A stretch of DNA of 64,000 bases from the NCBI GenBank assembly GCA_000993565.1, contig LBWK01000001.1:4695-68694 (forward strand). The letters run 5' to 3'. Positions 2 through 61,781 of this stretch are shown here, one piece after another; the first letter of the stretch is position 1, and each line of letters begins with the position of its first letter. This DNA comes from a candidate division WS6 bacterium GW2011_GWF2_39_15 (GTDB lineage: Bacteria; Patescibacteriota; Dojkabacteria; SC72). A program made the translations under genes and the position numbers. A model generated the notes under the pieces. The model searched no databases. It was given only the letters and a program-made list of their open reading frames with translations, and was not told the origin of the DNA.

Positions 2-1000
2 CCTGAGCTTATGAAATCTGTTAATGAACAGGTTATTCAAATGGCTGATCAGAAGTTGGGAGCAGAGAAGAAGGAAATTAGGGCTGATATGGAGGGAAAA
101 AGGAATGAAATTGAAAGACTTATCAAAATGATTCGTGAGGATCTGAATGAAAGCAAAACTAAGCTTTCCGATACAGAAAAGGAGCGGGCTAATATGTTCG
201 GCTCTCTTAAAAACTCCCTTGATGAATATAAAAAGATCACAGATCAGCTGGCTGTCAGTACAGAAAGCCTTAAAAAGGTCCTTTCTAATAACCAACTTAG
301 AGGTCAATTCGGGGAACAGGTTGCGGATGAGCTTCTTAAGATGGCGGGATTTGTGAGAGGGGTAGATTATGAGTTCAATAAGGAACAAGCAGGTTCAGAA
401 ACAAGACCTGATTTCTGTGTCTTTCTTCCGGATGGAACTAGGATCAATGTTGATTCGAAGTTCCCGTATTCAAACCTTCAGAAGAGTAGTGAAGCGACAA
501 GCGATACTGAGAAAAGAGAGTTTCTCAGACTTTTTGAGAGAGATGTGAGGGAGAAAATTAAACAAGTTACAACAAGAGATTATATTAACCCTGAGGATAA
601 AACAGTTGACTTTGTTATTCTCTTCATCCCAAATGAAATGATTTTTTCATATATTTATGATCAGTTAAATAGTGTATGGAAAGAAGCTATGGAAAAGAAA
701 GTAATTCTGGCTGGACCGTTTAGCTTCTCAGCCCTTCTTCGTATGATTAAGCAGTCTTATGATAACTTTAGAGTACAGGAGAACATCCAGAAGATTGTTG
801 GATATGTAAGAGGGTTGGAAAAGGAGTTTGTTAAATTCAGCGAAGAGTTTGGGAAGTTTGGAGATAGAATACAGCAATTAAACAGTCAGTATGAAGTTGT
901 AAGCAGAACGAGGGTTAACCAGATGAATAAAGCAATGGAAAAAGTCAGGCTGGAAGGGCCGGATGATTCAGCAGATAATCAACCGAGGTTGTTAAACTAA
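2..1000 (+). CDS. rmuC: DNA recombination protein RmuC, C-terminal part; the ORF is open to the window edge and is probably 5'-truncated
   Basis: Motif RPDFCVFLPDG...VDSKFP and a coiled-coil N-terminal part, typical of the RmuC family. The reading frame stays open back to nt 2. Confidence 0.6.
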   Translation, partial: PELMKSVNEQVIQMADQKLGAEKKEIRADMEGKRNEIERLIKMIREDLNESKTKLSDTEKERANMFGSLKNSLDEYKKITDQLAVSTESLKKVLSNNQLRGQFGEQVADELLKMAGFVRGVDYEFNKEQAGSETRPDFCVFLPDGTRINVDSKFPYSNLQKSSEATSDTEKREFLRLFERDVREKIKQVTTRDYINPEDKTVDFVILFIPNEMIFSYIYDQLNSVWKEAMEKKVILAGPFSFSALLRMIKQSYDNFRVQENIQKIVGYVRGLEKEFVKFSEEFGKFGDRIQQLNSQYEVVSRTRVNQMNKAMEKVRLEGPDDSADNQPRLLN

Positions 1001-3389: not shown

Positions 3390-3980
3390 ATGATAGTTTA
3401 TATTATGTTTTCAGTAATCGATGGTAAAACTCCGGTTCTTCTTTCTGCTCCTCATGTATATAATCACTACAGAAAAAATTTGAATGGGGTTGTCAAACAG
3501 GGTGAGCTATGGACAGACAGCATTGTCAAAGAGACAGTTTCATTATCTGGGTGCAATGGGATAATTGTAGACAAGGATGTCGATTATGACCCTAACTACG
3601 ATAAGTTGGAGAATAATGAGTATAAGCAGAAGGTTGATAAGATCATCAAAGATAAGAAAATCAAATATTTCTTTGATATACATGGATTAAGTGATTCCCA
3701 TTGTTATGATTTCGGAATATTCTTTCCTTTTAGGTATCTTAAGTCTCAGAAACTTGCATATACACTTGCCCAGGAACTTTTAAAAGGCCCCCTGCGAGAT
3801 TCAATAGTCATTGTTCTTAATATGTGTGATGACAATCAAGAGACACTTACGGAGTACGTAGCTAAAAAGAAGAAAATCCCCGCAGTACAACTGGAGATTG
3901 CAAGGTATATCAGAGAGGATGATGCTTTGCGTGAAGCCCTCATTTCAACCCTTTCGAAGGTCATTTTAACTCTTAATTAA
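3390..3980 (+). CDS. Hypothetical protein, possibly N-formylglutamate-amidohydrolase-like
   Basis: Motifs LLSAPHV and FFDIHGLSD resemble the FGase family PHxG / DlHS blocks; the match is weak. Confidence 0.3.
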   Translation: MIVYIMFSVIDGKTPVLLSAPHVYNHYRKNLNGVVKQGELWTDSIVKETVSLSGCNGIIVDKDVDYDPNYDKLENNEYKQKVDKIIKDKKIKYFFDIHGLSDSHCYDFGIFFPFRYLKSQKLAYTLAQELLKGPLRDSIVIVLNMCDDNQETLTEYVAKKKKIPAVQLEIARYIREDDALREALISTLSKVILTLN

Positions 3981-4073
3981 AAAGTCAGGTATACCCCTTT
4001 GACCTACCGTATACTATCTGATATCTTAAAGGTACAGACATAAGATTTATATATAAATTAATCCACTATTTAT

Positions 4074-5111
4074 ATGACACCACAAGCAAAAAAGGATGAT
4101 GTGAAGGATAAAAAGGTTGAGAGTACTGAGAATGTAGCAAGGAGGAAAGCCATTGATATGGCAGTGGCTCAAATTGAAAAGCAGTTCGGTCAGGGATCAA
4201 TTATGAAACTTGGAAGCCGTCAGAGGGTGGATGTTGCAGTTATTCCGACAGGAGCAATATCATTAGATCTTGCTTTAGGTATTGGAGGCATTCCAAGGGG
4301 AAGGATTATTGAGATCTATGGCCCTGAGTCTTCAGGTAAGACGACTTTGGCAATGCATATCCTTGCTGAAGCCCAAAAACAGGGTGAAACAGTCGCCTTT
4401 ATTGATGCAGAACACGCTTTTGACCCGACATACGGTAAAATAATAGGAATAAATATTGACGAAATGTTTATTTCTCAGCCTGATTTTGGAGAACAGGCAC
4501 TGGAAATACTTGAAACATTAGTTAGATCTTCAGGTTTTGGTGTTATTGTCATTGACTCAGTTGCCGCTTTAACTCCTAGAGCCGAAATTGAAGGAGAAAT
4601 GGGCGATAGTCATATGGGTCTACAGGCAAGGTTAATGTCTCAAGCTTTGAGAAAAATAACCGCAATTGCGAGTAAGGCGGGAACTACGGTTATATTCCTT
4701 AATCAGCTTAGAATGAAAATAGGGGTTATGTTTGGTAATCCTGAAACTACAACAGGTGGAAATGCATTAAAGTTCTATGCTTCTATCCGTATGGATATAA
4801 GGCAGAAAGAAAAGATTATGAAGGGTGATCAGGTTGTTGGGCATATTAGAGTTGTTAAAGTTGTAAAGAATAAGCTTGCTCCTCCATTTAGAGAAGCATC
4901 GTTTAGTATTATCTATCCAACTGGAATTGATAAAGAAAGCAGCTTGCTTGATGCTGCAATCAGCCGAGGTATTATACAAAAAGCTGGTGCGTGGTTAAGA
5001 TATGGAGATATACAGCTTGCACAGGGAAGGGAGTCTGCAATTGAGACATTAAAAACAGATAAAGCTCTTGCCGGAAAAATTGAAAAAGAGGTACGGGCAA
5101 CTTTGAAATAG
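4074..5111 (+). CDS. recA: Recombinase RecA
   Basis: Walker [12 protein letters not shown] and full-length RecA signature blocks ([58 protein letters not shown]). Confidence 0.95.
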
Positions 5112-5114
5112 GTA

Positions 5115-5768
5115 GTGAAAGTCACAGATATCACTCCACAACAGAAGAAAACAGGGAGATTTAATCTTTATGTAGATGGTGTTTTTACACTCGGACTTGG
5201 TAGTAGCACTATTGCTCTTTTTAATCTGTACAAAGGGAAAGACCTTTCTGACGAAGATTTAGATGAAATTATTAAATCAGAAATATATTCTAAGTTCTAT
5301 GATAGGGCTTTCACATACACAACAGGTGCTGTAAAAAGTGAGAAAACCGTAAGGCAGTATCTTAAAAGGGTATATTTAAAAAAGAAAAAAGTCTGGATAG
5401 GAGATAATCTGGATTATGATCTTGAAGAGACTATTTCTAAAGTTATCTCTAAATTGAAAGAATATGGATTATTAAACGATAAAGAATATGCACAACTATT
5501 TGTTTCTTCAAGGGAAAGAAGTAAACCGAGATCTAAGACGGCTATTGCCAATGAATTGCGCTTAAAAGGTATTTCCAATGAGGATATTGAAACTGCACTG
5601 GAATCAGTCTCAGATGATGATATGATCTATAATGTCTATGTTAAAAAGTATGGTGAAAAGCCATTTGATGCTAACGAGCAGCCAAAAGTAGTTGCATTTC
5701 TGGCAAGGAAAGGTTTTAGCTGGGATTTGATATCTAAATTGGAAAGAAGATTAAAAGGTGACATATGA
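5115..5768 (+). CDS. recX: RecA regulator RecX (GTG start)
   Basis: Lies directly downstream of recA. Tandem helical repeats with the YAQLFVSSR-type RecX motif. Confidence 0.65.
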   Translation: MKVTDITPQQKKTGRFNLYVDGVFTLGLGSSTIALFNLYKGKDLSDEDLDEIIKSEIYSKFYDRAFTYTTGAVKSEKTVRQYLKRVYLKKKKVWIGDNLDYDLEETISKVISKLKEYGLLNDKEYAQLFVSSRERSKPRSKTAIANELRLKGISNEDIETALESVSDDDMIYNVYVKKYGEKPFDANEQPKVVAFLARKGFSWDLISKLERRLKGDI

Positions 5769-7458
5769 GAGTAGTAAAAAATGGATAATACCTGAAAATA
5801 TATCGAGCAAAGATGGTATTGTTGAAGAGATCCTTACGAAGAGAGGTTTGAATAAAGACGAGTTCAATGATTATCTTAACCCCTCACTCTCATCAATTCC
5901 AACTTGGGAAAAACTATATGGAGCAAATAATGCAGCCGAAAAAATTATTAAGGCAGTAAATGAAAACAAAAGAATATTTATACATGGGGATTTTGATGTT
6001 GACGGTATATCCGCAACCGCAATAATGTGGGATTTTCTCTATAGAGAAGTATCCGATAAACTTGGCAAGAAAGTTCATGTTCTCCCATATATTCCTGACC
6101 GGGTTGATGAAGGGTATGGGCTCTCAAAATCATCGGTTGATGCCATGATTAAAGAGGGAGGCAATCTGATTGTAACTGTAGACTGTGGAGTTAGAGATCG
6201 TGTGTTGATTGAGGAATATATGCAGAACTCAGCGTGTGAGTTTATCGTAACTGATCATCATGCGCTTCCTGAAAATATTGAAGACATTAAATATACGCTC
6301 GTTCATCAGATGTTTCCACAAAGCGAGTATCCTGAACAAAGGATATCAGGAACATTTGTTGCGTTTCTTCTCACTCAGGCAATAAGGTCACAGCTTGAAA
6401 TTGATAGTGAGTTGAGTATTAATAGCCGTGGTCTAGATCTGGTCGCACTTTCTACTGTCACAGACATGATGCCGCTTGTGGGTATAAACAGAACCATAGT
6501 TAAGTATGGTCTGGAGCAGATTAGAATGGGGAGTAGATACGGTCTCAAATATATTATGGAACTGTCAGGAGTAGAGATTGCCGATACAGATTCATACCAT
6601 TTGGGATTTGTGATAGGCCCGCGTTTAAATGCTGCGGGTAGAATAGGATCTGCAATGGATGCTTTGAAGCTTCTAGTGACCAAAGATAAAATGAAAGCTA
6701 GGGAATATGCGGCTAAACTCCATAACCTGAATGTCCAGAGGCAGGAAACGACTCAGTCCATAATCAAAGAAGCAGAACAGATATTGAATATAGAAGACAC
6801 GCTCCTTTTTATAAGCGGGGAAGAGTGGCATGAGGGTATTATTGGTCTTGTAGCAGGGAAGTTGATGGAAAAGTATGGAAAGCCGGTTATTGTTGCTACG
6901 AAAACGGATAATGGCTCCTATAAAGGGTCTGCTAGAAGCATAGCTTCTTTTAACATTACGAAAGCGGTATCTAACTTCGGAGATTATCTGGAAAGGTATG
7001 GGGGACATGCTCAGGCGGCTGGTTTTACAGTTAAGCCAAATGAGCTAGAGAGATTTAAAAAGAAGCTTATTAAATACGCAAATGAAAACATTTCTACTGA
7101 TGTGTTAGAGAGAACGTTGGAGATCGATGCTATTATTGAGCCGACGGATGTTACACAGGATATGTATGGAGAGATTGATAAATTGAAACCGTTTGGATAC
7201 GGTAATTCAAAACCCCTCATTATGTTAAAAGGAGTTGAAATAAATGAGAAATATCTCATGAAAGGTGGTGAACATATTAAATTAAGATTACGTAGCGGTA
7301 TGAAGGATGTTATTGCTTTAATGTTTAACTGTAGAGAGGATGGAGAGAAACTAAATGAAGGAGATACAATTGATATTGCAGGTTCTCTGACGGAGAACAC
7401 CTGGAATGGTTTCAGAAGCATAGAGGTACAGGTGAAGGAATGGAGAAGTACTAATTAA
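5758..7458 (+). CDS. recJ: Single-stranded-DNA-specific exonuclease RecJ
   Basis: DHH motifs (HGDFDVDGISATAIM; VTDHHALP) and DHHA1 (GGHAQAAGFTV). Overlaps the recX stop. Confidence 0.85.
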   Translation: MTYESSKKWIIPENISSKDGIVEEILTKRGLNKDEFNDYLNPSLSSIPTWEKLYGANNAAEKIIKAVNENKRIFIHGDFDVDGISATAIMWDFLYREVSDKLGKKVHVLPYIPDRVDEGYGLSKSSVDAMIKEGGNLIVTVDCGVRDRVLIEEYMQNSACEFIVTDHHALPENIEDIKYTLVHQMFPQSEYPEQRISGTFVAFLLTQAIRSQLEIDSELSINSRGLDLVALSTVTDMMPLVGINRTIVKYGLEQIRMGSRYGLKYIMELSGVEIADTDSYHLGFVIGPRLNAAGRIGSAMDALKLLVTKDKMKAREYAAKLHNLNVQRQETTQSIIKEAEQILNIEDTLLFISGEEWHEGIIGLVAGKLMEKYGKPVIVATKTDNGSYKGSARSIASFNITKAVSNFGDYLERYGGHAQAAGFTVKPNELERFKKKLIKYANENISTDVLERTLEIDAIIEPTDVTQDMYGEIDKLKPFGYGNSKPLIMLKGVEINEKYLMKGGEHIKLRLRSGMKDVIALMFNCREDGEKLNEGDTIDIAGSLTENTWNGFRSIEVQVKEWRSTN

Positions 7459-8000: not shown

Positions 8001-8034
8001 TATTGTCCTTATAATTAATTAATGCTATCATTAC

Positions 8035-8185
8035 CACAAGCGACCAAGGAGAGTGTGAGCTTGGAAATTATGTGACACTAAACAATTATATAACCTACAA
8101 GTGTTCAATATTAGTAATATTGAAAACTGGGGTGGCACCACGGTAATATTATCGTCCCCTTTCTGAGGGGATTTTTTATTTTTAC
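8035..8185 (+). promoter_or_regulatory. T-box riboswitch leader of aspS (specifier candidate GAC, Asp)
   Basis: T-box motif AACTGGGGTGGCACCACGG at 8124-8143. Terminator CCCCT-ttctg-AGGGG followed by TTTTTTATTTTT at 8156-8183. GAC followed by A at 8074-8077 in the upstream stem region. Confidence 0.65.
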
Positions 8186-24102: not shown

Positions 24103-24549
24103 ATGAATTTAGAGAGAGAAAGTGTCATCGAATATTTGGAGGGCTGGGAGACCGTATTTGATTTAGACGCCGGATATATTGAAAACTGGATGGATCCATC
24201 GACAGAGGATAGTTTTATTGTCAGCACGGATCCGCAGGGAAGATTTAAGATGGTTAGGATAAATGTGCGTCATATAAGGTCAAATGAAGTCTATACAACT
24301 ACATTTATGTGGGGAGTAGGGGAAGAGAATAATATATATTCGGGTCTTACAAGTGAAAGAAATGACACTAAACTCTATGCTAGCGGATTTGTTAACGGCC
24401 CGGCGACTTTGATTGCACAGTCGGTTCTTAGTGGATTAAAGTTAAATATTGATAGTTTATTGATGAGTTTAAGTCCTCAAGATTTCACAGCTCTCAGCAG
24501 AATGATGAAGTATGAGATGTCTGTTATTAGAGCATCAAAGGATTTTTAG
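24103..24549 (+). CDS. Hypothetical small soluble protein (first of three tandem ~140-aa genes)
   Basis: ORF with its own AT-rich promoter region. Shares with the next two genes a short W-containing motif at about aa 60-70 (YTTTFMW in this one) and the same overall size (148 aa). Confidence 0.45.
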   Translation: MNLERESVIEYLEGWETVFDLDAGYIENWMDPSTEDSFIVSTDPQGRFKMVRINVRHIRSNEVYTTTFMWGVGEENNIYSGLTSERNDTKLYASGFVNGPATLIAQSVLSGLKLNIDSLLMSLSPQDFTALSRMMKYEMSVIRASKDF

Positions 24550-24600
24550 CGTATTAGTGGTATAATGCAGTGATATTTATACGATTATCTGAGATATAAT

Positions 24601-25017
24601 ATGACAATTGAAAATAGTCAAACATTTAGAGAGAGCTTAGAGCAGTTAAAAAAAGAGTTTAAACTTAGTGAGGAATTTCCACTCGGATGGGAAATAGACC
24701 GGGGTTTCAATAATTATTGGTATAGAGCTGTGGGGGATTTAGGAGAAGTAAATGCGTCTCTAATATCTCCTGATGGTAGACCGTATAAAGTGACCATTGA
24801 ATGGAGTCGTAGAGAGAAAGCGAGAAGTGCTATAAGTGTGTACAATAAAAGAAATCACCCTATTTTCCCTAATATTGAGAATAGCCCTGATAAAAGAGAG
24901 GAGGCTGTCATGGCAGCGTTGGCAATGGTTTATATCTGCTTTCCGGCTATGGATCTGCAACTTAATGAAGACGATGTTGCCCCTTTATTTCATACATTAA
25001 GGACCTGCCTTCAGTGA
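24601..25017 (+). CDS. Hypothetical small soluble protein (second of three tandem paralogue candidates)
   Basis: Extended -10 TGGTATAAT upstream. YKVTIEW motif in the same position as the YEVRYTW / YTTTFMW of its neighbours. Confidence 0.45.
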   Translation: MTIENSQTFRESLEQLKKEFKLSEEFPLGWEIDRGFNNYWYRAVGDLGEVNASLISPDGRPYKVTIEWSRREKARSAISVYNKRNHPIFPNIENSPDKREEAVMAALAMVYICFPAMDLQLNEDDVAPLFHTLRTCLQ

Positions 25018-25056
25018 TATAATACTATACAATGTATAAGTTTATAGGACTAAACC

Positions 25057-25479
25057 ATGCCGATTGAAGGATCTACATTTGATGACAAGTATCAGGATTT
25101 AATTTGCGAGATTGGCCTATCTGAAAGCGTGGAATCGATTAAGAGTAGGTATTTAATAGATGACAGAGTGGAAAGGTTTTCATTTGGGCCGGATCCTTAT
25201 GGAGGATCTCTTTTTTATAGAGTAATAGATAATAAAACATCGCATACTTATGAAGTCAGATATACATGGAGTAATGTGAATTTAACTACGAGCCATATTA
25301 AAGTCCTCTCTAAATCAAGTGAAGTTTTAGATCCACAGACACAGGTGGCTATTATTCTTGGAGGATTTTGGGGACTGCAGGACAATCTGGTACGGGTTTT
25401 ATCCTCTGACAAGGCAAGCGAGCTCTTTGATGCTTTTGGGCGGACAATAAGTGCTATTCTCGAACCTAGAAAGGGCTGA
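25057..25479 (+). CDS. Hypothetical small soluble protein (third of three tandem paralogue candidates)
   Basis: GATATAAT -10 upstream; YEVRYTW motif. Confidence 0.45.
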   Translation: MPIEGSTFDDKYQDLICEIGLSESVESIKSRYLIDDRVERFSFGPDPYGGSLFYRVIDNKTSHTYEVRYTWSNVNLTTSHIKVLSKSSEVLDPQTQVAIILGGFWGLQDNLVRVLSSDKASELFDAFGRTISAILEPRKG

Positions 25480-25529
25480 TTTGCCAATCCCGATTATCTT
25501 TTGTATACTTACACCATAATACTTTGATC

Positions 25530-25735
25530 CGGATATCACCGGGGAGTATCAGGGAGAGCTGCTGACACTATAAGTTAGCGGGGTAAAGACTGACGGAGGG
25601 CAACCGTAATCATATGCTAAACCATTGAAAAGTGGTTAAGGAAAAGTGAGGGTGGTACCGTGTACTACCGTGAATTAGTAGTTCACCCCTCTTTGGAGTT
25701 TAAGATCTTTCTTAGGTTCCAAAGAGGGGCTTTTT
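25530..25735 (+). promoter_or_regulatory. T-box riboswitch leader of ileS (specifier candidate AUC, Ile)
   Basis: T-box motif AAAAGTGAGGGTGGTACCGTG at 25641-25661. Terminator CCCCTCTTTGG...CCAAAGAGGGG plus TTTTT at 25685-25735. ATC followed by A at 25548-25551. Confidence 0.7.
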
Positions 25736-33028: not shown

Positions 33029-33165
33029 ATTCTTTAGTGCGTAATCTTCATAGATTACAAAGGATAAAAAAACAAGTCAACCCTTTATAGCCTGTAACAA
33101 TAATACCTCTTGACTTATGCCTATGGGAGTATATACAGTATACTATATATATAATTAATCGGTAT

Positions 33166-33558
33166 ATGAGAGATAGCATAGTCTTTTTGATGAATGAAAG
33201 TGTCCCTGCAGGCTTTACCAGTATTGTTAGTGAAGCTGTCGGAACTCCTATGGACCTTAATGATTTATGTATTAAGCATCCTGCGGCAACGTTTTTCGTT
33301 CGGGTTGATGGATATTCAATGATTAATGCCGGTATTCATGACGGGGACATGCTTGTAGTTGATAGATCTTTGGAGCCATCAAATAATAGTATTGTTATTG
33401 CTTTATACAACGGGGGTTTTACAGTTAAGCGCCTTCTTAAAAACAGGGGGAACATCTCACTTTTCCCTGAAAATCCTAAGTATTCACCTGTTACTATTAA
33501 ACAGAGTGATGATTTTGAAGTATGGGGTGTTGTAACTTTTGTCATAAAGAAAGTATGA
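33166..33558 (+). CDS. umuD: UmuD-like S24 LexA-type peptidase domain protein (no HTH)
   Basis: Ser-Lys dyad context ([15 protein letters not shown]...FTVKRL). 130 aa. Translationally coupled (ATGA) to a Y-family polymerase gene. Confidence 0.75.
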
Positions 33559-34811
33559 GTAAAGTATATGGATTGGTAGACTGTAACAACTTTTTTGTGT
33601 CGTGCGAACGGGTCTTTGATCCTAAGCTTAGGAATATTCCCACGGTTGTTCTTTCAAATAATGACGGATGTATCGTGGCCAGATCTCAGGAGGCAAAAGC
33701 TTTGGGTGTTAAAATGGGAGAACCTTTGTTTAAAGCCAAAGATTTCTTAAATAAGCATAATGCCGAAGTTCGATCCTCAAACTATTCCCTTTATGCCGAT
33801 ATGTCTCGCAGAGTAATGAGCGTTTTGGAAGAGATGGTGCCTGAAATAGAGATATATTCCATAGATGAAGCCTTTCTGGATTTAACGTCTTTAAGATACC
33901 GTGATCTTACAATGTATGCCAAACAGATTAAAGATAGTGTTTATCGGTGTACAGGAATTCCTGTCTCTATCGGAGTTGCAAAAACAAAAACATTAGCAAA
34001 AATTGGTAATCATATTGCGAAAAAGAACCTTACTCTCAATGGCGTAATGGATATGAATATTATGAGTGTAAAACAAATTGATGGAATTCTCAAAAATATT
34101 CCGGTAGAGGATGTTTGGGGGATAGGTTTTCGATCGTATAATAAGTTGAGAAGTATGGGGGTTGAAAGTGCGTATAATTTCAAAACACTCAATGAATCGT
34201 GGATTCGATCTCAAATGGGTATTAACGGTTGGAAAGTGCAGCAGGAGCTTGGAAACTTAGATTGCAACTTCCATCATAATGATATTCGTAAGAGCCTGGT
34301 AGTATCAAGGAGCTTTTCGGGATATATAGAGCATTTTAATGAGCTTTCGGGAGTTTTGGCTCGATTTTCTCATAGTGCAGGAGAAAGTTTAAGGGAAGAA
34401 GGTGTAGAAGCCAAATATCTGTCTGTATATATAAGGACAAACTACTATAACCAAAATCATAAACAGTATATGAATAGTATAACGGTTGAACTAGAGGAAC
34501 ATACTAACTCATCTTCTGTCATTTTGGCCGGGGTACTGCAGGGTCTAAAGAAGATCTATAAGGATGGGTTTAAATATCGTAAAGCGGGAATTTCCATTTT
34601 TGATATTAAACCGGAAGGTTACCAGCTGGGCATGTTTACCAATGCCAGAAAACTGGATCCAGTTTTTGAGGTTGTAGATTCAGTTAACCGTAAATGGAAA
34701 GGGTCTATAAAACTTGGAAGAGAGCTTTTCTCGCAAAATAAGATAAGTGCAAAAGAACTGGTCTCTCCAAACTATACCTCTAGCTGGACGGAGCTGCTTT
34801 CTGTACATTAA
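33555..34811 (+). CDS. umuC: Y-family DNA polymerase (UmuC/PolV-like); true start is ATG at 33555
   Basis: N-terminal [30 protein letters not shown], and IDEAFLDLT (the catalytic DE). The UmuC-type N-terminus and the umuD pairing argue against DinB. Confidence 0.8.
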
Positions 34812-40908: not shown

Positions 40909-41925
40909 ATGAATTTGGATCGAAGGTATTATCCCGAGGTTGACAAGTTAAAAGCTTTTGCAACCATAATTGTTATTTTGACTCATATTCTTGCTGAACA
41001 TAAAGGAGGAGCACCATATTTGAATCTCATATGGGAACTTATTCATTTTAGCGTAGGTATTTTCGTATTCGTATCAGGATTTCTACATGCTACATCTAAA
41101 GACGTGCCGATTACGTACCAGGATATCTGGAGATCTATAGCTAAGAGGGTAATACGAATTGTCAAACCATATTATCTTTATGTTCTTCTATTTATTGTTG
41201 CAATGGCTATTATGGGAAGATTCGGGGAGCTCATCCAAAAAGCTGATTGGAAATATGTTTTTAATACGGTCTTTCTTCTGGGAGGCGTTGGCTATGCATG
41301 GATTCCTCGGCTTTTTCTATCTCTTTATATTGTCATTATATCCTTGCAGCTTCTTTCCAGAGTTCGGGCGTTTAAATATATCATCATCGCTTTTCTGATT
41401 TTGTCTATGATTTTCTCTGCAATTACACAATTTGTGGAAATAGATTTTCTATCCAAGTTTAATTTCGTTTTTGGCTGGTTTATAATATATATTGCAGGCT
41501 TTTTCCTACAGAAGTTTTATAAACATATTAACGTAACATGGGTGTTTGCAATTTCATCGATTGGGACACTAATTCTACTGGGGATCTTACTTCTCTTTGG
41601 CTTAAATACAAGCCTTTTTCATAATGAATATCCGCCTACACCATATTTTATTCTGTATAATCTTGCTGTAATTGCTTTGCTCTGGATGATTGCAACAAAG
41701 GTGAACCTTCTGGGTGTTGTTCATAGTGCTGTTGAGTGGTTATCAAGGCATGCTTATGAAATGTTTTTATATCATTTGCTTTTTCTGTATATCATATTTA
41801 GAAGCGTAAGGATAAATATTGTGGTTGATTTCTTCCTAGTTTTATTCTCTACTGTACTTTTGATTGTTGGGATGGAGAAAATACAGGAAGCTTTAAAGCG
41901 AAGGTTACCACTGAAATCTTTTTAG
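40909..41925 (+). CDS. Acyltransferase family 3 (OafA-like) membrane protein
   Basis: 10 TM helices. N-terminus with the family-typical His (ILTHILAEH) and a lysine-rich loop. Confidence 0.6.
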   Translation: MNLDRRYYPEVDKLKAFATIIVILTHILAEHKGGAPYLNLIWELIHFSVGIFVFVSGFLHATSKDVPITYQDIWRSIAKRVIRIVKPYYLYVLLFIVAMAIMGRFGELIQKADWKYVFNTVFLLGGVGYAWIPRLFLSLYIVIISLQLLSRVRAFKYIIIAFLILSMIFSAITQFVEIDFLSKFNFVFGWFIIYIAGFFLQKFYKHINVTWVFAISSIGTLILLGILLLFGLNTSLFHNEYPPTPYFILYNLAVIALLWMIATKVNLLGVVHSAVEWLSRHAYEMFLYHLLFLYIIFRSVRINIVVDFFLVLFSTVLLIVGMEKIQEALKRRLPLKSF

Positions 41926-42204
41926 GTCTACCTTCATATTTTTAATTAACACACCTTCTGAACGGAGTTTCTCTATCTTGGTTGTAATTCCTTTTCCTCC
42001 TGAATATCCATGCATTTTCCCATCGCTGCCAACTACCCTGTGACACGGGACTACTTTTGTATCAGGGTTTCTTCGCATAGCAGAACCTACCGCTCTGTAA
42101 GCTTTTGAATTGCCTGCAAGCGATGCGATTTGTTTGTATGTAGCGACCCTACCCTTTGGAATTCTGCTCGCGACTTCATATATTTTCTCCAGAAAAGTAT
42201 TCAT
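41905..42204 (-). CDS. ogt: Methylated-DNA-protein-cysteine methyltransferase (MGMT C-terminal domain only); start taken at ATG 42204 rather than the TTG-extended 42222
   Basis: Active-site PCHRVV and helix-turn-helix YKQIASLAG. Confidence 0.75.
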   Translation of the reverse strand: MNTFLEKIYEVASRIPKGRVATYKQIASLAGNSKAYRAVGSAMRRNPDTKVVPCHRVVGSDGKMHGYSGGKGITTKIEKLRSEGVLIKNMKVDLKRFQW

Positions 42205-42253
42205 AGTCCTCAAGTATCGCAAATTAAGAATACAGTTTCAAACGTTTGAACAC

Positions 42254-43387
42254 TTAGAGCGTAATTATAAATTCGGCTCCTGTTGAGTTTGTATCATTGA
42301 GAAATATTTCTCCATCGTGTTTTTTGACAATCTCTTTTGTGATAGATAGGCCTAGTCCACTTCCTCCCGTTTTTCGGGATCGAGATTTGTCTATTCTATA
42401 GAATCTATCAAATATCTTCTCTGCAGAATCTTTTGGTATTCCTTTACCATTATCCCTAATTATAATTTTGATACCTTTCTTTTCCCTTACCGCCTCAATC
42501 ATTACTTTATTACCTCCGGAGTACTTAATAGAGTTTTCAATTATATTCAGGAAAGCTCTTGCTAGAAGAACCTTGTTACCAGCTAATTCATATCCTTTTT
42601 TACAATTGACCTCAATACCAAAGGAGTTGTCTTTTATCAATCCGGCGGCTTGGCTTTTCACTTCTTCAAGCAGATCACAAAGGTCTATCTTTTCCTTCTC
42701 GATCCCATTACCTAGTATAGATAGAAGAAGGAGATCCTCTGTTAATTTATTCATAAATCTTACAGATCTATTACATTCTTGGAGAAGAGGTATTACTTCA
42801 CTTTTTGTTAATCTTTTATCAGCGAGTGCTGTATCAAGGTTTGCCTGTATTATCGCAAGTGGAGTTTTAATTTCGTGAGAAGCATTTTCTACAAATTCCT
42901 TCTGAGACTTAAACGAAAGAGCAAGTCTTTTAGACATAGAGTTGAAGCTTTTTATAAGGGCAGATATCTCATCCCCGGTATCTTCATAGCTGATGTCCTC
43001 TCCCAAATTATCTGACTGCTTTCTAAGCATTTCATCTTTTAGATTCTCGAGCGGGTTTAATGTTTGCTCGGCGATGAAATATCCTCCGATAAAGCTGAAA
43101 ATGGCTAGTGGTAGAATTGAATATAGTGAAAGAAGTCTTATATTATCGAGATCTTTATCTCTAGATTGCTGTATGAGTTCAATCTCTAGAGTATCGAGAT
43201 TTCTAAAGATAATTCCGCCTTTTGGGAAGATGGGCTGGAGCGGGTTAACACTCTTCATGTATTGGGTGAGAAAGATATTGACAACAAGAAGAAACCCGAG
43301 GCTGAATGCCAGAAGTAGGGTAGAACACCACAGTGCCATTTTAAATTTTATTGATTTTGTAAATGTCATCTCCATATTATACTTCAT
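42254..43387 (-). CDS. Two-component sensor histidine kinase
   Basis: 2 TM helices, H-box ASHEIKTPLAII, and HATPase N/G boxes (DNGKGIP, GGSGLGL). Confidence 0.85.
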   Translation of the reverse strand: MKYNMEMTFTKSIKFKMALWCSTLLLAFSLGFLLVVNIFLTQYMKSVNPLQPIFPKGGIIFRNLDTLEIELIQQSRDKDLDNIRLLSLYSILPLAIFSFIGGYFIAEQTLNPLENLKDEMLRKQSDNLGEDISYEDTGDEISALIKSFNSMSKRLALSFKSQKEFVENASHEIKTPLAIIQANLDTALADKRLTKSEVIPLLQECNRSVRFMNKLTEDLLLLSILGNGIEKEKIDLCDLLEEVKSQAAGLIKDNSFGIEVNCKKGYELAGNKVLLARAFLNIIENSIKYSGGNKVMIEAVREKKGIKIIIRDNGKGIPKDSAEKIFDRFYRIDKSRSRKTGGSGLGLSITKEIVKKHDGEIFLNDTNSTGAEFIITL

Positions 43388-45208
43388 TTATTCATTCTTC
43401 ATCGCTTCTACCGGACTTATTTTTGATGCGGTAAAGGAAGGAATGAGAGATACAAAAATTGTAAGTACGAATAGAATTACAGTGTAAAGGAGTATAGACT
43501 GCCAGTTGATAGCAAGGAAGATTGAGCTGTCAGCTATCCTTATAACATCAAAGCTTTGTGAGACGGTCTGGTCGATAAAGCTTTTGAACCATGCGGCAAC
43601 CGCAGAAGAAGCTACGAAATTTAATCCTATGCCAAGACCGATTCCTGAAAGATAACCTATTGAAACATAAAGGAATGATTGAAGTATAAATAGGGTTAGT
43701 ACTGTACTGCTTTTCATACCGATAGCCCTAAAAATACCGATTTCCTTAGTACTTTCTGATACGAATTTACTCATTGTGAATACGATTGTAGCAATTAGAA
43801 GCACAACGAAACTTACAAGTAATCCATTTGATATGGCACCAAGATTGCCCTCCAGCTTTTCGAAAACTTCCAGGTCGCCAAGATCCTGATACGCGTAGCC
43901 CGCTCTGTTTAACGCAGTGATTACTTCTGCCCTTTTATTAATGTCTTCTACAACAAGGCTTAAAACATCTCCGTATTTGTTGGCTTTTTCATATATATCT
44001 GTATCGTTTACCTCTCCAACAACCTCATTGCTATCATTCGTTTCGATAATTAATCCTGGAATCGCGTATGTCTGTATTCCGTCAGGGCTGAAAGAGACGG
44101 ATCCTCCTGCCCGTGGTCCGCCTATCTGAATATTTGTTTCAAGTCTCTTGCCGAGCTGTCCAACAAATCCTCCGAATCCCTGTGATATTTCGTCCCCGTT
44201 ATATGTGAGTCCTGAGAAATCTGAGCTTAAAATATCGTTAGGTAAATCGGCTGATACTCTAGCATTAATTTCATTTGTGGTAAGGTCTTTCATGACCTTT
44301 TGTGCAAATTGAGCAGGAATGTAGTTTGAGACAATTTTTTCGTCTTCGATTATACCTACAACTTTGAATTTGTAGGTGATGGGAGTGGATATCTTCTTGT
44401 AGTCCCAATACTCCGATATTGCATCTTTCCTCTCTTCTACCTTTTCGCTCATTTCAGCATCAGTCATCTTTGTCATCGTTACAACCCCTTCGTTACGGGA
44501 TACAGTATAGTCAGTTATTGACTCTAGACCTCCGAAAGACAGTGTGAACTCAGTTCCTAGTAGATTTCCCTTATTGTAATCCAGTGATTCCGTTTTAAGA
44601 AACGACATTCTTTTGGCCGATTCGCCGCTTCCCGGGGTTATAGAAATCGCTTTGGACATATCAAGCGTTATTGTATTGCCCTCACTCCAATCTTCGTAGG
44701 AGTAGATAAGAGATGATGCATTTAAGATGATAGGTATTGTTTCTCCCTCGGTGTAGCTGAAATCTTCTTCTGTATATAATTTTGCAGCATCAGCATTAAG
44801 AGTGGTTAAATTGTTAAACTTGAGAGTCTTATCGGGAAAAAGGTCTGTGGTCTCCACCAGTCTTACTGGAAGGTTACTTTGCAAATCTGCACTCTTAACT
44901 CCTTCAATTGTGCTGACTGTATTAACATCGGCTTGTGAAAAGCGGTTGTCTTCAATGGATCCGGTATTCTTAAAAAATTGCGATGGATTGAATTCTTCTT
45001 GCTGAGTCTTTACTTCTAGTAGAGTATACTGATCGGCTATTGTGTCAAATACGCTTATATTAAGGGCTGTTTTAATATTCTGTATCTGGCTTGTAATTAT
45101 TACACTTAAAGTTACAAGTGTTAGGACTGGGATGATTAAAAAGAGGGCTTTTTTAGCTCTGGTTTTAAGCTTCTTTACATTAATGGAGAGGATGTCTGTT
45201 ATTCTCAT
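43388..45208 (-). CDS. ABC transporter permease, FtsX/MacB-like with a large extracytoplasmic domain
   Basis: TM1, a ~400-aa extracellular region, then 3 C-terminal TM helices. Confidence 0.75.
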   Translation of the reverse strand: MRITDILSINVKKLKTRAKKALFLIIPVLTLVTLSVIITSQIQNIKTALNISVFDTIADQYTLLEVKTQQEEFNPSQFFKNTGSIEDNRFSQADVNTVSTIEGVKSADLQSNLPVRLVETTDLFPDKTLKFNNLTTLNADAAKLYTEEDFSYTEGETIPIILNASSLIYSYEDWSEGNTITLDMSKAISITPGSGESAKRMSFLKTESLDYNKGNLLGTEFTLSFGGLESITDYTVSRNEGVVTMTKMTDAEMSEKVEERKDAISEYWDYKKISTPITYKFKVVGIIEDEKIVSNYIPAQFAQKVMKDLTTNEINARVSADLPNDILSSDFSGLTYNGDEISQGFGGFVGQLGKRLETNIQIGGPRAGGSVSFSPDGIQTYAIPGLIIETNDSNEVVGEVNDTDIYEKANKYGDVLSLVVEDINKRAEVITALNRAGYAYQDLGDLEVFEKLEGNLGAISNGLLVSFVVLLIATIVFTMSKFVSESTKEIGIFRAIGMKSSTVLTLFILQSFLYVSIGYLSGIGLGIGLNFVASSAVAAWFKSFIDQTVSQSFDVIRIADSSIFLAINWQSILLYTVILFVLTIFVSLIPSFTASKISPVEAMKNE

Positions 45209-45210
45209 GT

Positions 45211-45906
45211 TTATTTAGTATTTAAATTAAAATCTTTTTTTACTTTTCCATTTTCAAGCTTGATTATCCTTGAAAATCTTTTGGCTATATTTTCGTCGTG
45301 GGTAATGATTATGACGCTCATGCCGTTCTCTTTTGAGAGTGATTCAAGTGTTTCAATTACCATTTCAGAGTTCTTTTTATCAAGTTTACCTGTTGGTTCA
45401 TCTGCAAAGATAATTTGAGGATCATTCGCTAATGCCCTAGCTACGGCGACTCGCTGCTGTTCCCCTCCTGAAAGTTGTCGTGGTAGGTGATTAGCTCTAT
45501 GTAAAAGACCGACTTTTTCAAGAAGACTGTCAGCTTTTTCCATTGCTTCTTTTCTTCTTATGCCGGCTACCATCATAGGAAGCATAATATTTTCTTTGGC
45601 GGTGAAATAGTCCTGGAGATAAATCATCTGAAATATAAAGCCCATGGTTTTGTTTCTGAACTCCGAGACTTCTTTATCGCTCATCTTTTTTAGGCTCTGT
45701 CCATTAATAATAACGTCGCCTTCCGTCATTTTATCCAAGCCACCTACAAGCTGCAGCAGGGTGGTTTTACCTGAGCCAGAAGGCCCGAGAATTGCAAGAT
45801 CAAAACCTTTGGGGAGTTTGAAACTCACATTATCGAGTGCGGTTACTTCCGCTCCCGCATCTTTATACCTTTTGGTGAGATTATGTACTTCAATTATATT
45901 CTCCAT
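45211..45906 (-). CDS. ABC transporter ATP-binding protein (MacB/LolD-type)
   Basis: GPSGSGKTTLL, LSGGEQQRVAVARAL, IIFADEPTG. Confidence 0.85.
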   Translation of the reverse strand: MENIIEVHNLTKRYKDAGAEVTALDNVSFKLPKGFDLAILGPSGSGKTTLLQLVGGLDKMTEGDVIINGQSLKKMSDKEVSEFRNKTMGFIFQMIYLQDYFTAKENIMLPMMVAGIRRKEAMEKADSLLEKVGLLHRANHLPRQLSGGEQQRVAVARALANDPQIIFADEPTGKLDKKNSEMVIETLESLSKENGMSVIIITHDENIAKRFSRIIKLENGKVKKDFNLNTK

Positions 45907-45971
45907 AAAATAGTTAGATAATTAATTAGACTGTGATAGTCTAGTTCAGAGATAGTGAAATCTTCGTGAAG

Positions 45972-46652
45972 TTATCTTATTATGTAGCCTTTTCCCTTGA
46001 CAGAAAGAATTAACTCCTTTTGCGTATCAACTTTCTTACGCAGTGTTTTGATATGAGTTTTAACAGTTTGTGTAAATGTATCAACCTCTGTAGACCACAC
46101 ATGCTCGAGGAGTTCTTCGGATGATACGATGCGTCCTTTGTTTCTGAGAAGATATTCAAGTATACCCATCTCTTTGTTGCTAAGCATTATCTCTCTGCTA
46201 TTGCTGCTTATAACAAGATTGCTTTCCGGGTGGATGGTATACTGTCCAAAAATGAGAGCTTCACTCTTGTTTAAGCTGTTTCTCTTTATCACAGCCTTTA
46301 TTCTTGCTACGAGCTCCTCTAAATTGAAGGGTTTTGTCATATAATCATCCGCACCGGTTTCAAAGCCCTCAAGCTTATTGTATATCTGTGATCTGGCCGT
46401 TGCCATGATTATGGGGGTTGTGTTCTTTTCGTCTCTCAGTCTTTTACAGACCTCCACTCCATCTATTTCCGGCAGGTTAAGGTCTAGGATTATACAGTCA
46501 TAATTGCTAATTCTGGCCATCTCTAATCCGATTTTTCCATCTTCAGCTTCATCGACTTCAAAACGCTTATTTTCGAGGAATAAGCGAATTGGCTTTCGCA
46601 AAGCATCTTCATCTTCAATAATTAGGACTTTCATGTGAGTATTATATAACAA
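45972..46652 (-). CDS. OmpR-family response regulator (likely start MKVLII at 46634)
   Basis: Receiver domain (the conserved Asp sits in ILDLNLP) and a winged-helix C-terminus. Confidence 0.85.
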   Translation of the reverse strand: MLYNTHMKVLIIEDEDALRKPIRLFLENKRFEVDEAEDGKIGLEMARISNYDCIILDLNLPEIDGVEVCKRLRDEKNTTPIIMATARSQIYNKLEGFETGADDYMTKPFNLEELVARIKAVIKRNSLNKSEALIFGQYTIHPESNLVISSNSREIMLSNKEMGILEYLLRNKGRIVSSEELLEHVWSTEVDTFTQTVKTHIKTLRKKVDTQKELILSVKGKGYIIR

Positions 46653-46971: not shown

Positions 46972-47046
46972 ACTTTTGTTTTATACAGAATTTTAAACTG
47001 TCAGAGTATATCAAAAAGGAGTGAGATCTGATACTATAAACGTGAT

Positions 47047-48468
47047 ATGAGAGTTAACCGTAAGAGAATTATTCCCCTTTTAGTACTGCTTTCCCTTTTC
47101 ATCTGGTATTTTAATCCTGAAATACGGCTTGGTCTGGATATTTTAACTCACGGTCTGTATGACGCCTGCATACTACCCTCGAAGCAAGAAAGGAACTGCC
47201 AAGGGGAAGGGGTTCGTTTCCTTGATGAAGAAAGATTTCAGCTTGGCGTGTCTCAGGATGATCCCAACTTTGTTTTTAAAATAAATAGAAGCATTAACGA
47301 AATAGATCTTTCACAATCATCTATTGAGGTTATAGCCAATCAGGGGGCTCTCAAAGAAGATACTAATCAGTACGTTAACTTACTGGTTACTCCGAAAACC
47401 ATTGGTATATATCATCTTGATGATAGTAATGTAGTGTTAATGGAGGATGTAGAGGGGAATACAAAGATCACTTTGTCATTTCCTAAGGAATTTAAAGAAG
47501 GATACACTGTATTCGTTTACTTAGATGTTGTAGATAAAGAAGGAAGAGGGGCTTTTGGTTGGAAATATGCGACCACATCATTGACGATGTTTAACTTCTA
47601 TTTTGGTAACTACTCATACTTGGTTCAGTATCTGATTTGGTATGTAGCGATTTTTGGCCGATCATTCAAGCGAAATGCTTGGTCGACGGTATATAATTCT
47701 CAGACGAAAGAGCCAATACTTGGTGCCGTGGTTAGAATATTTAGAAACAACGCATTAATATCTTCTTTTGTTACAGGTCAAACTGGAGTAATTCAGAGCA
47801 GATTAGAGAAGGGAAGATACAAATTGATGATTACCCACTCGCAGTATACCTTCCCAAGTAGGATACAGCCCCTTACAAGGGATGGCGAGTATAGAAATTT
47901 GTATTATGGAGGATATATTGAAGTAAAGAGAGATAAATCATACATTAATGCAGATATTCCTCTTGACCCAACCGGAAAAGTAGCTCGTAGAAGCTTTATA
48001 GAACAAGGTCTCACGGTTCTTCAATCAACGGTAGATTTTTTCAACCCCACAATGTTAATCTTTGTTGCAGGATTCCAATTAGTCGTCTGGCCTACATATC
48101 TTGAATCGTATGTCTATGCAGCTATTGCAACCCTCTTAATTATCTTACAGAAAAACCTTCAGGGAAAGAACGAGAAGACTCCTGGAATAATTTTGAATAG
48201 TAAAGGTGATAGGCTCCCGAATATCAAAATTAATTTATATGATGGTGACTGGAATAAGGTAGTGGACAGCAAAGTCACAGATGTTAATGGCGAGTATGAG
48301 TTTATAGTCCCAAGTGGAAATTATTTTCTAAAGGTAGACAGTGATTCTTACATTATTCAGGGTCTTAACGGCTCCGGAGAGTATAAAGTACCAGTTAAAG
48401 CTAAAGCTGGGAAAACAATGTATGTAAACGATAAACTTGTCCTTACGGAAAAGGCTGGGGTCACTTAA
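47047..48468 (+). CDS. Membrane protein with two carboxypeptidase-regulatory-like (prealbumin-fold) domains
   Basis: N-terminal TM. Repeated pattern ...VxDxxGNxxxGxYEFxVPSGNYxLKV... and ...VTGQTGVIQS..GRYKLMITH. Confidence 0.5.
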   Translation: MRVNRKRIIPLLVLLSLFIWYFNPEIRLGLDILTHGLYDACILPSKQERNCQGEGVRFLDEERFQLGVSQDDPNFVFKINRSINEIDLSQSSIEVIANQGALKEDTNQYVNLLVTPKTIGIYHLDDSNVVLMEDVEGNTKITLSFPKEFKEGYTVFVYLDVVDKEGRGAFGWKYATTSLTMFNFYFGNYSYLVQYLIWYVAIFGRSFKRNAWSTVYNSQTKEPILGAVVRIFRNNALISSFVTGQTGVIQSRLEKGRYKLMITHSQYTFPSRIQPLTRDGEYRNLYYGGYIEVKRDKSYINADIPLDPTGKVARRSFIEQGLTVLQSTVDFFNPTMLIFVAGFQLVVWPTYLESYVYAAIATLLIILQKNLQGKNEKTPGIILNSKGDRLPNIKINLYDGDWNKVVDSKVTDVNGEYEFIVPSGNYFLKVDSDSYIIQGLNGSGEYKVPVKAKAGKTMYVNDKLVLTEKAGVT

Positions 48469-48533: not shown

Positions 48534-49085
48534 TCAGGGGTGGGAAAGCTCTTCACCTCTGGCACTTTTCAATTTCGCAACCTCTTGGGTGATTTTCTTA
48601 ATTTCGTTTAGAATGATAAGAAAAGCCGGGATGACCACAAGCACGATTACTCCAACCTTTGTTTTAACAAATGAAACAAAGAAACCGATATATGGCGCTC
48701 TGGCAATATACTCTCCCAGTATGTCATTCTTTTGCACCTTATCTATATCATTTGATTGATTAAAATCGCCTTTGGTTGTAATAATGCCTTTTTCATCAAC
48801 ATCAACTATTCTATGTGTAATTGTTCGCTTCGGCGTCTCATTTATTGTAGAAAAGGTGATTATATCTCCCTTTTTGTAATCACTAGATTTCTCTACAATA
48901 ATTAAGTCCCCCATTTCAATTGTAGGGGACATTGAACCACTCTCAACACTAAACATTTTGAAGGGCAGATCATTCATCGCTTCAGACACAATGATCAGAG
49001 ATATAAATATGATAACTAATGTTATGCAGACAGTAACCAAAGCTTTTGATACTATGCTCCATAAGTTTTTATTGGAAGAGTTCAT
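48534..49085 (-). CDS. sipW: SipW-type (archaeal/ER-type, S26B) signal peptidase I
   Basis: N-terminal TM, SGSMSPTIEMGDLIIV (the Ser box), a conserved His (HRIVDV), and a C-terminal TM. Confidence 0.7.
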   Translation of the reverse strand: MNSSNKNLWSIVSKALVTVCITLVIIFISLIIVSEAMNDLPFKMFSVESGSMSPTIEMGDLIIVEKSSDYKKGDIITFSTINETPKRTITHRIVDVDEKGIITTKGDFNQSNDIDKVQKNDILGEYIARAPYIGFFVSFVKTKVGVIVLVVIPAFLIILNEIKKITQEVAKLKSARGEELSHP

Positions 49086-60986: not shown

Positions 60987-61757
60987 TCAAAGGATAAAAA
61001 GGAAGATAATAAGTCCTAAGACTATTCTATATACACCGAAATATCTTAAGAATCTTGATTTGGATATCTTCTCAAGAAGGTACAAAGATAGGTAACCGAC
61101 TACAAATGTTATAAGGATACCTATTAATACTCTTGAATCTGAAAAAATGTTGATGCTATTGACATTCTTTATCATCTCGTAAACGAAGGAGCCAAAGAGC
61201 ACCGGCAGTCCCAATATAAAACTTAACCTTATTGCTGTGTACTGATCTAGGCCGGAAAGCATTCCTCCCAAAGTCGTAATACCTGACCTTGAGACTCCGG
61301 GGATTAAAGCTAGAGCTTGTGAGAGTCCGGAGATAAAGGTTTGTCTAAAGGTGGTATTTTCAATTTCAGATTCTACCTTCCTTTCTTTAAATCTTAAATC
61401 TGCAATGACCATTAACACACCAACAACGATGAGTGAGATTGCTACAACATAAGTCTCATGAAGCTGAGCTTCGATAGCATCACCCCATAGAATCCCTATA
61501 AGTCCTGCTGGTATGGATGCCAAAGCTATGTATATGTACAGTTTGAATTTCGAGGATATATTTGTAAATAGAAATTTCCAGTTGAATAAGACAATAGCTA
61601 GCGTTGTTCCTAAATGAAAGGTTGTAAGGGTAAAATTGGAGAGATTTTCTATATTCAATAACTTTGTTACAAGGATCAAATGTCCAGAACTGGAAATAGG
61701 CAAAAGCTCTGTAATCCCCTGTACTACAGAAAGAAGAATTGTTTGTATTAGATCCAT
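60987..61757 (-). CDS. uppP: Undecaprenyl-diphosphatase
   Basis: ELLPISSSGHL and PGVSRSG motifs; 8 TM. Confidence 0.85.
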   Translation of the reverse strand: MDLIQTILLSVVQGITELLPISSSGHLILVTKLLNIENLSNFTLTTFHLGTTLAIVLFNWKFLFTNISSKFKLYIYIALASIPAGLIGILWGDAIEAQLHETYVVAISLIVVGVLMVIADLRFKERKVESEIENTTFRQTFISGLSQALALIPGVSRSGITTLGGMLSGLDQYTAIRLSFILGLPVLFGSFVYEMIKNVNSINIFSDSRVLIGILITFVVGYLSLYLLEKISKSRFLRYFGVYRIVLGLIIFLFIL

Positions 61758-61781
61758 TATATTGATACTATAAACGTAGAA

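Follow-up and report, generated by a model that had tools for sequence, protein, structure and literature searches.

It has been reported that the LexA motif differs between lineages (PMC8565304), as does the operator type in the case presented here. In the Bacteroidetes, a lineage that was once thought to be without canonical LexA, there are non-canonical LexA-like repressors with the operators GGA-N5-TCC and CTAA-N5-TTAG, which are found upstream of umuD and of dinB/umuC; these repressors are S24 proteins with a distinct N-terminal domain, their own genes are preceded by the motif, and the regulon is small and SOS-like (PMC8565304). Minimal SOS-like circuits centred on umuDC are those of UmuDAb in Acinetobacter and of HdiR in Streptococcaceae, in which recA takes part only in some species and the membership varies between close relatives (PMC8565304). 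UmuDAb itself is a UmuD with an N-terminal DNA-binding extension (PMC8565304).

The promoters considered here belong to one stretch of DNA of 64,000 nucleotides from the candidate division WS6 bacterium GW2011_GWF2_39_15, which was analysed as a whole and is called the window below, and to its surroundings. WS6 is Candidatus Dojkabacteria, within the Patescibacteria/CPR. The LexA regulon of Patescibacteria was reportedly the subject of a study by Sanchez-Osuna, Barbe and Erill (Environ Microbiol 2017). In the literature searched, with the Patescibacteria SOS study standing outside the comparison, no account was found of how DNA repair and mutagenesis are regulated in uncultured CPR bacteria with genomes below 1 Mb. 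What is offered here is a concrete, conserved and testable candidate operator for umuDC, recA and rmuC in one CPR lineage, and the close relatives show recA and rmuC joining or leaving the candidate regulon while umuDC stays. The G+C content of the window is about 38%, and the genes concerned are as follows:

4074..5111, + strand: recA (Pfam)
5115..5768, + strand: recX (Pfam)
5758..7458, + strand: recJ (Pfam); the block of the three genes runs over 4074..7458
33166..33558, + strand: umuD (Pfam)
33522..34811, + strand: umuC (Pfam); the block of the two genes runs over 33166..34811
11..1000, + strand: 3′ part of rmuC, the window starting within the gene

Given their tight packing, recA, recX and recJ probably form one operon, and the Pfam-annotated reading frames of umuD and umuC overlap. 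When the upstream regions of the window genes were read, Shine-Dalgarno sequences were found to be absent, and in many genes a −10-like hexamer stands just 6–17 nt ahead of the ATG. This short distance implies that many of the transcripts would be leaderless or would carry very short leaders. The commonest promoter form in the window is the extended −10, TGnTAnnnT, mostly without a clear −35.

Several other features of the window were recorded in the same survey. Three consecutive paralogous ORFs of about 140 aa each, which have no Pfam match and each have their own extended −10 promoter, occupy 24103–25479 between a peptidase M3 gene and ileS. Ahead of aspS (8018–8162; 55.7 bits, E = 7e-12) and ileS (25515–25693; 26.7 bits, E = 3e-4) stand T-box leaders, both scoring below the Rfam gathering score of 93 bits; they are divergent CPR T-boxes that standard annotation would miss. 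A BceRS/AB-like module is found at 42254–46652. On the minus strand at 41905–42222, directly downstream of a histidine kinase gene, a 105-aa protein is encoded that has the DNA-binding domain of O6-methylguanine methyltransferase and nothing else (ATL/Ogt-like). In addition, the 15-mer TGATACTATAAACGT stands directly before the start codons of two secreted-protein genes, at ~47025–47046 ahead of the gene at 47047–48468 and at 61760–61781 ahead of the GH18 gene at 61782–63452.

Close relatives for the comparison of promoters were obtained by protein look-ups with UmuD and RecA. The UmuD homologues found are 71–73% identical to the window protein, and the gene order ileS - carD - umuD - umuC - LPG-synthase-like - cofD-like is kept on their contigs; the RecA proteins of the fetched near relatives are 85–90% identical. 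The DNA of this genome that was examined amounts to ~90 kb of 869 kb, namely the window, ~6 kb beyond its left end (L001) and ~10 kb beyond its right end (L296), and ~200 kb of near-clade DNA was scanned for dyads and hexamer pairs.

Upstream of umuD, the promoter scan gave TTGACT-N18-TACAGT, and the elements are arranged in the following manner:

33110..33115, + strand: −35 hexamer TTGACT of umuD (promoter scan); TTGAC is invariant in five species
33129..33143, no strand: candidate umuDC operator, the 15-bp dyad GTATA-TACAG-TATAC, perfect in five species at the same position
33134..33139, + strand: predicted −10 hexamer TACAGT of umuD (promoter scan); TATAGT in three relatives

The five species with a perfect dyad are that of the window and those of L084, L085/L086, L087 and L292, and the −35/−10 spacing is 17–18 nt in 5/5. 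Their umuD intergenic DNA has otherwise diverged, and two invariant islands stand out from it in all five, first TTGAC and then, 12–13 nt on, GTATATA-Y-AGTATAC. With its flanks, the window dyad becomes a 17-bp perfect inverted repeat, AGTATA-N5-TATACT (33128–33144). The −10 fills the spacer of the dyad plus the first base of its right half-site, so that part of the conservation of the dyad is conservation of the promoter.

The first-pass annotation had described this element as a pair of 8-bp palindromes and had allowed for an overlap with −10 elements. The element is indeed conserved and does overlap the promoter, the dyad at umuD being centred on the predicted −10 and that at rmuC (see below) overlapping its own, but its unit is the 15-bp dyad. 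L084, L085 and L292 have a broken left octamer (GTATATAT), the dyad being whole in all three; the bases that flank the dyad are complementary though different, that is, A...T in the window and L084 and C...G in L085; and a second perfect dyad with an unrelated spacer, GTATATGGACTATAC, lies over the ATG in L085 and L292, the dyad at rmuC likewise having a spacer of its own. For these reasons, the functional unit at umuD is taken to be the GTATA-N5-TATAC dyad and not two small palindromes.

The product of the gene, UmuD, has 130 aa (122–130 aa in the near-clade orthologues), with the S24 domain over residues 9–123 according to Pfam. The AG of the cleavage motif is retained, as are the Ser of GYSM and the Lys of TVKR; since this motif and both catalytic residues are kept, RecA-dependent processing of UmuD is to be expected.

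The recA promoter is built on another plan:

3988..3995, no strand: distal recA hexamer GGTATACC, core GTATAC at 3989–3994, 4 bp upstream of the −35; invariant in five loci within GTATACCCCTTTGAC
3999..4004, + strand: −35 hexamer TTGACC of recA (promoter scan)
4009..4014, no strand: proximal recA hexamer GTATAC, inside the −35/−10 spacer; invariant in five loci
4019..4027, + strand: extended −10 of recA, TGaTATCTT (promoter scan); 17-nt spacer, TG present

The two hexamers are 20 bp apart, start to start, and bracket the −35, a spacing that is invariant in the five loci carrying them (the window, L006, L293, L294 and L297, which make up four lineages). The promoter pattern common to these loci is GTATACCCCTTTGAC-m-NNNN-GTATAC-ywy-CTG-n-TAT. 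Between the −35 and the second hexamer lie 4 nt that change freely (tacc, ccca, ttag and tgag, with ccca in both L006 and L297), the flanks have diverged both upstream and downstream, and the recA coding DNA is ~79% identical between hexamer-bearing lineages. Twelve invariant hexamer positions beside free positions, in DNA that has diverged to this extent, therefore point to selection.

Almost every recA locus read from Dojkabacteria has a −35 of the TTGAC type, or close to it, and a TAT-type −10 ~17 nt further on. GTATAC is absent from the recA promoters of L295 and about a dozen other Dojkabacteria loci read, despite the similar −35/−10, which argues that the recA hexamers are clade-specific add-ons and not parts of the promoter. 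L295 is as distant as the hexamer-bearing loci, and the RecA proteins of the other hexamer-less Dojkabacteria are at most 79% identical. Thus the recA elements proposed at first sight are strictly conserved, but they are confined to a subclade and absent from most Dojkabacteria. Nor is an N5 dyad formed by the recA hexamers: the best match, GTATACCCCTTTGAC, has 8/10, a level that is met at 16 intergenic places of the window. The outer pentamers read GTATA-N16-TATAC, that is, they stand two helical turns apart.

Two further elements were noticed around this promoter. An ATAAAT(T) element is kept 16–17 nt upstream of the recA start (window 4050–4060, L006, L293, L294 and L295) and may act either as an additional promoter that is not regulated or as an AU-rich element in translation. 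In almost all Dojkabacteria, an ATTAAT-containing element (window 3972–3980; TTCATTAAT in a distant clade; loci L004, L005 and L208–L214) lies ~25 nt upstream of the recA −35 and extends in part over the stop codon of the preceding 196-aa gene.

When all Dojkabacteria loci were scanned for the dyad, a third promoter came to light. A perfect dyad, GTATAATGGGTATAC, is located at the rmuC promoter, 137–151 nt to the left of window base 1 (L001 5776–5790), where it overlaps the −10 TATAAT and ends 21 nt ahead of the start codon (L001 5812). At the same place in L293 stands GTATAATCAAAATAC, with 9/10 half-site bases, and in L004, which is more distant, GTATATACAGAATAC follows just after the rmuC −10, also with 9/10 and one base off the umuD operator of the window; the rmuC dyad is absent from L006, L294, L295 and L297. 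From this distribution rmuC looks like a variable member of the regulon, and with this recombination gene the motif is present at a DNA-damage gene besides recA and umuDC.

As for the individual palindromes, all four octamers listed earlier upstream of recA and umuD are present, but two coordinates were off by one and one palindrome is imperfect: the distal recA octamer GGTATACC is at 3988–3995, not 3989–3996, the right umuD octamer AGTATACT is at 33137–33144, not 33138–33145, and in CGTATACT (4008–4015), which had been taken for a perfect 8-bp palindrome, only the GTATAC core is palindromic. The hexamer GTATAC is not rare genome-wide, 22 copies being present in the window against 9.4 expected from dinucleotide shuffles and ~21 expected from single-base composition. 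A chance-like frequency in intergenic DNA had been named as the finding that would speak against an operator; 5 intergenic copies were counted in 4.06 kb, which is above the expectation of 1.27 (P = 0.007), and the probability of any intergenic GTATAC pair ≤30 bp apart is 0.016 by simulation. The pairing ahead of recA and umuD also holds, these being the only two places in 64 kb with GTATAC-type palindromes ≤45 bp apart. Of the 15-bp dyad GTATA-N5-TATAC, the window has a single copy, where 0.04 would be expected per 64 kb. In ~200 kb of near-clade DNA, perfect dyads are found only at umuD and rmuC, plus one within a coding region, and hexamer pairs ≤45 bp apart only at recA promoters, plus one at the L084 umuD promoter. 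Relatives do not keep the lone GTATAC copies that the window has in the promoter of the ileS leader and in the intergenic DNA at cofD. The GTATAC arrangement at the recA and umuD promoters is not due to chance.

When public contigs were scanned with the operator consensus, more than 120 chance matches were obtained in viral contigs, so a 15-mer scan is insufficiently specific. No known RNA elements were found by Rfam at the recA and umuD promoters. A longer string was dropped as the unit: TACnGTATACTATnT is common to recA and umuD, and GTATACTATCT is also found upstream of bacA, but L006 reads CCAGTATAC and relatives keep the outer pentamers instead. The copy near bacA (60987–61757, undecaprenyl-diphosphatase) lies at 61799–61809 on the minus strand, ~40 nt upstream of the gene, and is identical to the proximal recA hexamer plus the next five bases. 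GTATAC(T) as a mere −10 variant fits the ileS leader promoter only, where the copy is not kept in relatives; no −35 at the proper distance for TATACT as −10 was found at recA, umuD or bacA.

The search for the repressor gene gave the following picture. It had been claimed that the window holds no lexA, that its UmuD has no HTH and that umuD is its sole S24 match; Pfam bore out the first two points, UmuD having the S24 domain only, but the third fell, as the signal peptidase at 48534–49085 also matches S24 weakly. No lexA or other HTH-S24 gene was found by Pfam, tblastn and the gene table in the ~90 kb of the 869-kb genome (window, L001 and L296) or in any of the Dojkabacteria loci read, and no LexA (wHTH PF01726 + S24 PF00717) in ~200 kb of related loci. 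With 130 aa and S24 over residues 9–123, UmuD is too short for DNA binding. Several other genes were considered as regulators and set aside, having no Pfam match or not being DNA-binding-like: one of 196 aa ahead of recA, one of 188 aa close to carD, one of 186 aa that diverges from umuD in L085, and a number of small ORFs. No regulator gene was found in the flanks, 10 kb to the right (L296) and 6 kb to the left (L001).

In the three genomes readable for both elements, the recA hexamers and the umuD dyad are on one contig in 3/3 (the window, JACPFP010000003.1 and Logan ERR3281024_63096). This co-occurrence on the same contigs, together with the restricted distribution of dyads and hexamer pairs, supports a common factor reading GTATA. 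That recA and umuDC share one factor is what we infer from a common 5–6-mer in AT-rich DNA.

The reading preferred here, to which a probability of roughly 0.55 is given, is that the GTATAC-containing elements are operators of a dimeric repressor of the DNA-damage type in one Dojkabacteria subclade. Each subunit of the repressor would read the pentamer GTATA. At umuDC, two inverted pentamers, 10 bp apart centre to centre, would straddle the −10; since the operator is centred on the umuD −10, a bound dimer would exclude RNA polymerase and repress tightly, and the same type of dyad would act over the −10 of rmuC. At recA, there would be two GTATAC hexamers, each with both pentamer orientations, two helical turns apart around the −35, and the protein bound there would clamp the −35; repression there would in all likelihood be weaker, or else cooperative, as suits a gene needing a basal level. 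The most likely repressor would be LexA or a LexA-like S24 protein, inactivated by RecA filaments after DNA damage. Protein binding, a single protein at all three promoters, the identity of the repressor and the DNA-damage signal are what we infer from these sequences, and the dyad provides a direct handle for identifying the regulator. A more specific proposal is tentative and somewhat doubtful, namely that a non-canonical repressor, either a new S24 fusion or some small DNA-binding protein unrelated to S24, runs the damage response of the subclade. It would read GTATA in two arrangements, as a one-turn dyad over the −10 at umuDC and rmuC and as two-turn hexamers that clamp the −35 of recA, and recA would have been recruited recently. 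If true, the rewiring of an SOS network could be seen here in a reduced CPR genome.

It is unlikely that two unrelated elements are involved, of which the dyad of umuD (and rmuC) would be a genuine operator, while the recA pair would be read by another factor, for example a ribbon-helix-helix or tetrameric regulator reading short palindromes two turns apart, or would have another role in promoter architecture, the shared GTATA being coincidental. Such a division would account for the recA hexamers never forming the N5 dyad, GTATA-N16-TATAC being a different geometry, and it agrees with the commonness of the pentamers (200 GTATA/TATAC in 64 kb) and with a conserved CCCC beside the first recA hexamer that has no consistent umuD counterpart. 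It would leave aside, however, that the two elements share a subclade and are found on the same contigs, that both target classical SOS genes, and that close hexamer pairs keep to the recA promoters, with the one at the L084 umuD promoter, in the near-clade DNA scanned.

That there is no dedicated regulator, and that the blocks are promoter-intrinsic (−10-like TATAC(T), spacer or UP-type) and selected for promoter strength, is improbable. In the promoter of the ileS T-box leader, TATACT does act as the −10 (TTGCCA-N17-TATACT, the leader beginning 6 nt on), the spacer of the umuD dyad is itself the −10, and the left pentamer at rmuC is G plus the start of TATAAT. But the −35/−10 of recA persists without hexamers in L295 and all more distant Dojkabacteria, the dyad is two-fold symmetric and its flanks change symmetrically, its register relative to the −10 differs among umuD, rmuC and L004, and second dyads lie over the start codon in L085 and L292. 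Very improbable indeed is that a restriction-modification or methylation system acts on GTATAC, the recognition sequence of a known type II system (BstZ17I/Bst1107I), with promoter copies working via their methylation state. L295, the near relative without recA hexamers, does have 0 GTATAC in its 15 kb, where base composition predicts 4.9, so that its lineage may avoid the hexamer. But GTATAC is not depleted in the window (22 against 9.4–21 expected) or in other near-clade loci, the conserved umuD unit is the dyad and not the hexamer, and no methyltransferase or restriction gene was seen adjoining these loci.

The best reading is still that of an SOS-like repressor operator with a new motif. 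The GTATAC-type SOS operator of the first-pass annotation is supported in outline, being conserved, overlapping promoters and also present at rmuC, but its unit structure had to be revised, and recA is without the dyad of umuD. A conserved repeat over core promoters of SOS genes, as an SOS regulon would have it, is found over the umuD −10 and on either side of the recA −35, each in five species or loci, and over the rmuC −10.

Compared with known systems, the two boxes previously reported as missing are indeed so: the Cheo box GAAC-N4-GTTC has zero matches in the window, and the sole window match to the E. coli-type box CTGT-N8-ACAG, at 2378, is in a coding region and not at a promoter. The operator of E. 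coli NikR is GTATGA-N16-TCATAC. Like the outer pentamers at recA, GTATA-N16-TATAC, operators of the NikR type have inverted half-sites with a 16-bp gap, about two turns; the analogy is one of geometry only, and neither a gene resembling nikR nor a link to nickel nor any ribbon-helix-helix protein was found. With the Patescibacteria LexA regulon, the present case shares the superphylum and the kind of question, the motif of that regulon being outside the comparison made here.

The circuits of UmuDAb and HdiR are centred on umuDC, and here too the candidate regulon is centred on umuDC and its membership varies among relatives. Control of the UmuDAb type itself lacks a defining feature here, as UmuD has 130 aa and no N-terminal DNA-binding extension. 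In other lineages, three UmuD-like S24 proteins, 57–59% identical to the window UmuD, do carry N-terminal extensions (a HTH_17/MerR domain in P0017, a GGxRxGAGR motif in P0068 and P0103), and these could be UmuDAb-like regulators. Upstream of more distant umuDC cassettes stand different repeats, ATTCGG-N5-ATTCGG in L289 (~5950–6000) and ACATGT-N7-ACATGT in L290 (~5900–6000), which would be consistent with lineage-specific operators; the L290 cassette adjoins a tRNA gene and an integrase and is therefore probably mobile.

The repressors of Bacteroidetes resemble the present case in the short half-sites with an N5 spacer and differ from it in the half-site sequence, and no such regulator gene was seen here; neither GGA-N5-TCC nor CTAA-N5-TTAG occurs in the recA or umuD promoter sequence. 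From LexA systems the present one differs in that GTATA-N5-TATAC corresponds to none of those that PMC8565304 lists, so that the dyad is distinct from every LexA box compared (the Patescibacteria motif of Sanchez-Osuna et al. 2017 not being among them), in that recA has two half-overlapped hexamers 20 bp apart and not one box, and in that no LexA gene was located in the ~90 kb of the genome. What they have in common is a palindromic element over the core promoter, here of umuDC and recA, with LexA boxes being palindromic and 12–20 bp long and repression by steric hindrance being the presumed mode. In its architecture, with a short dyad across the umuDC and recA core promoters, the element is like a LexA-type operator.
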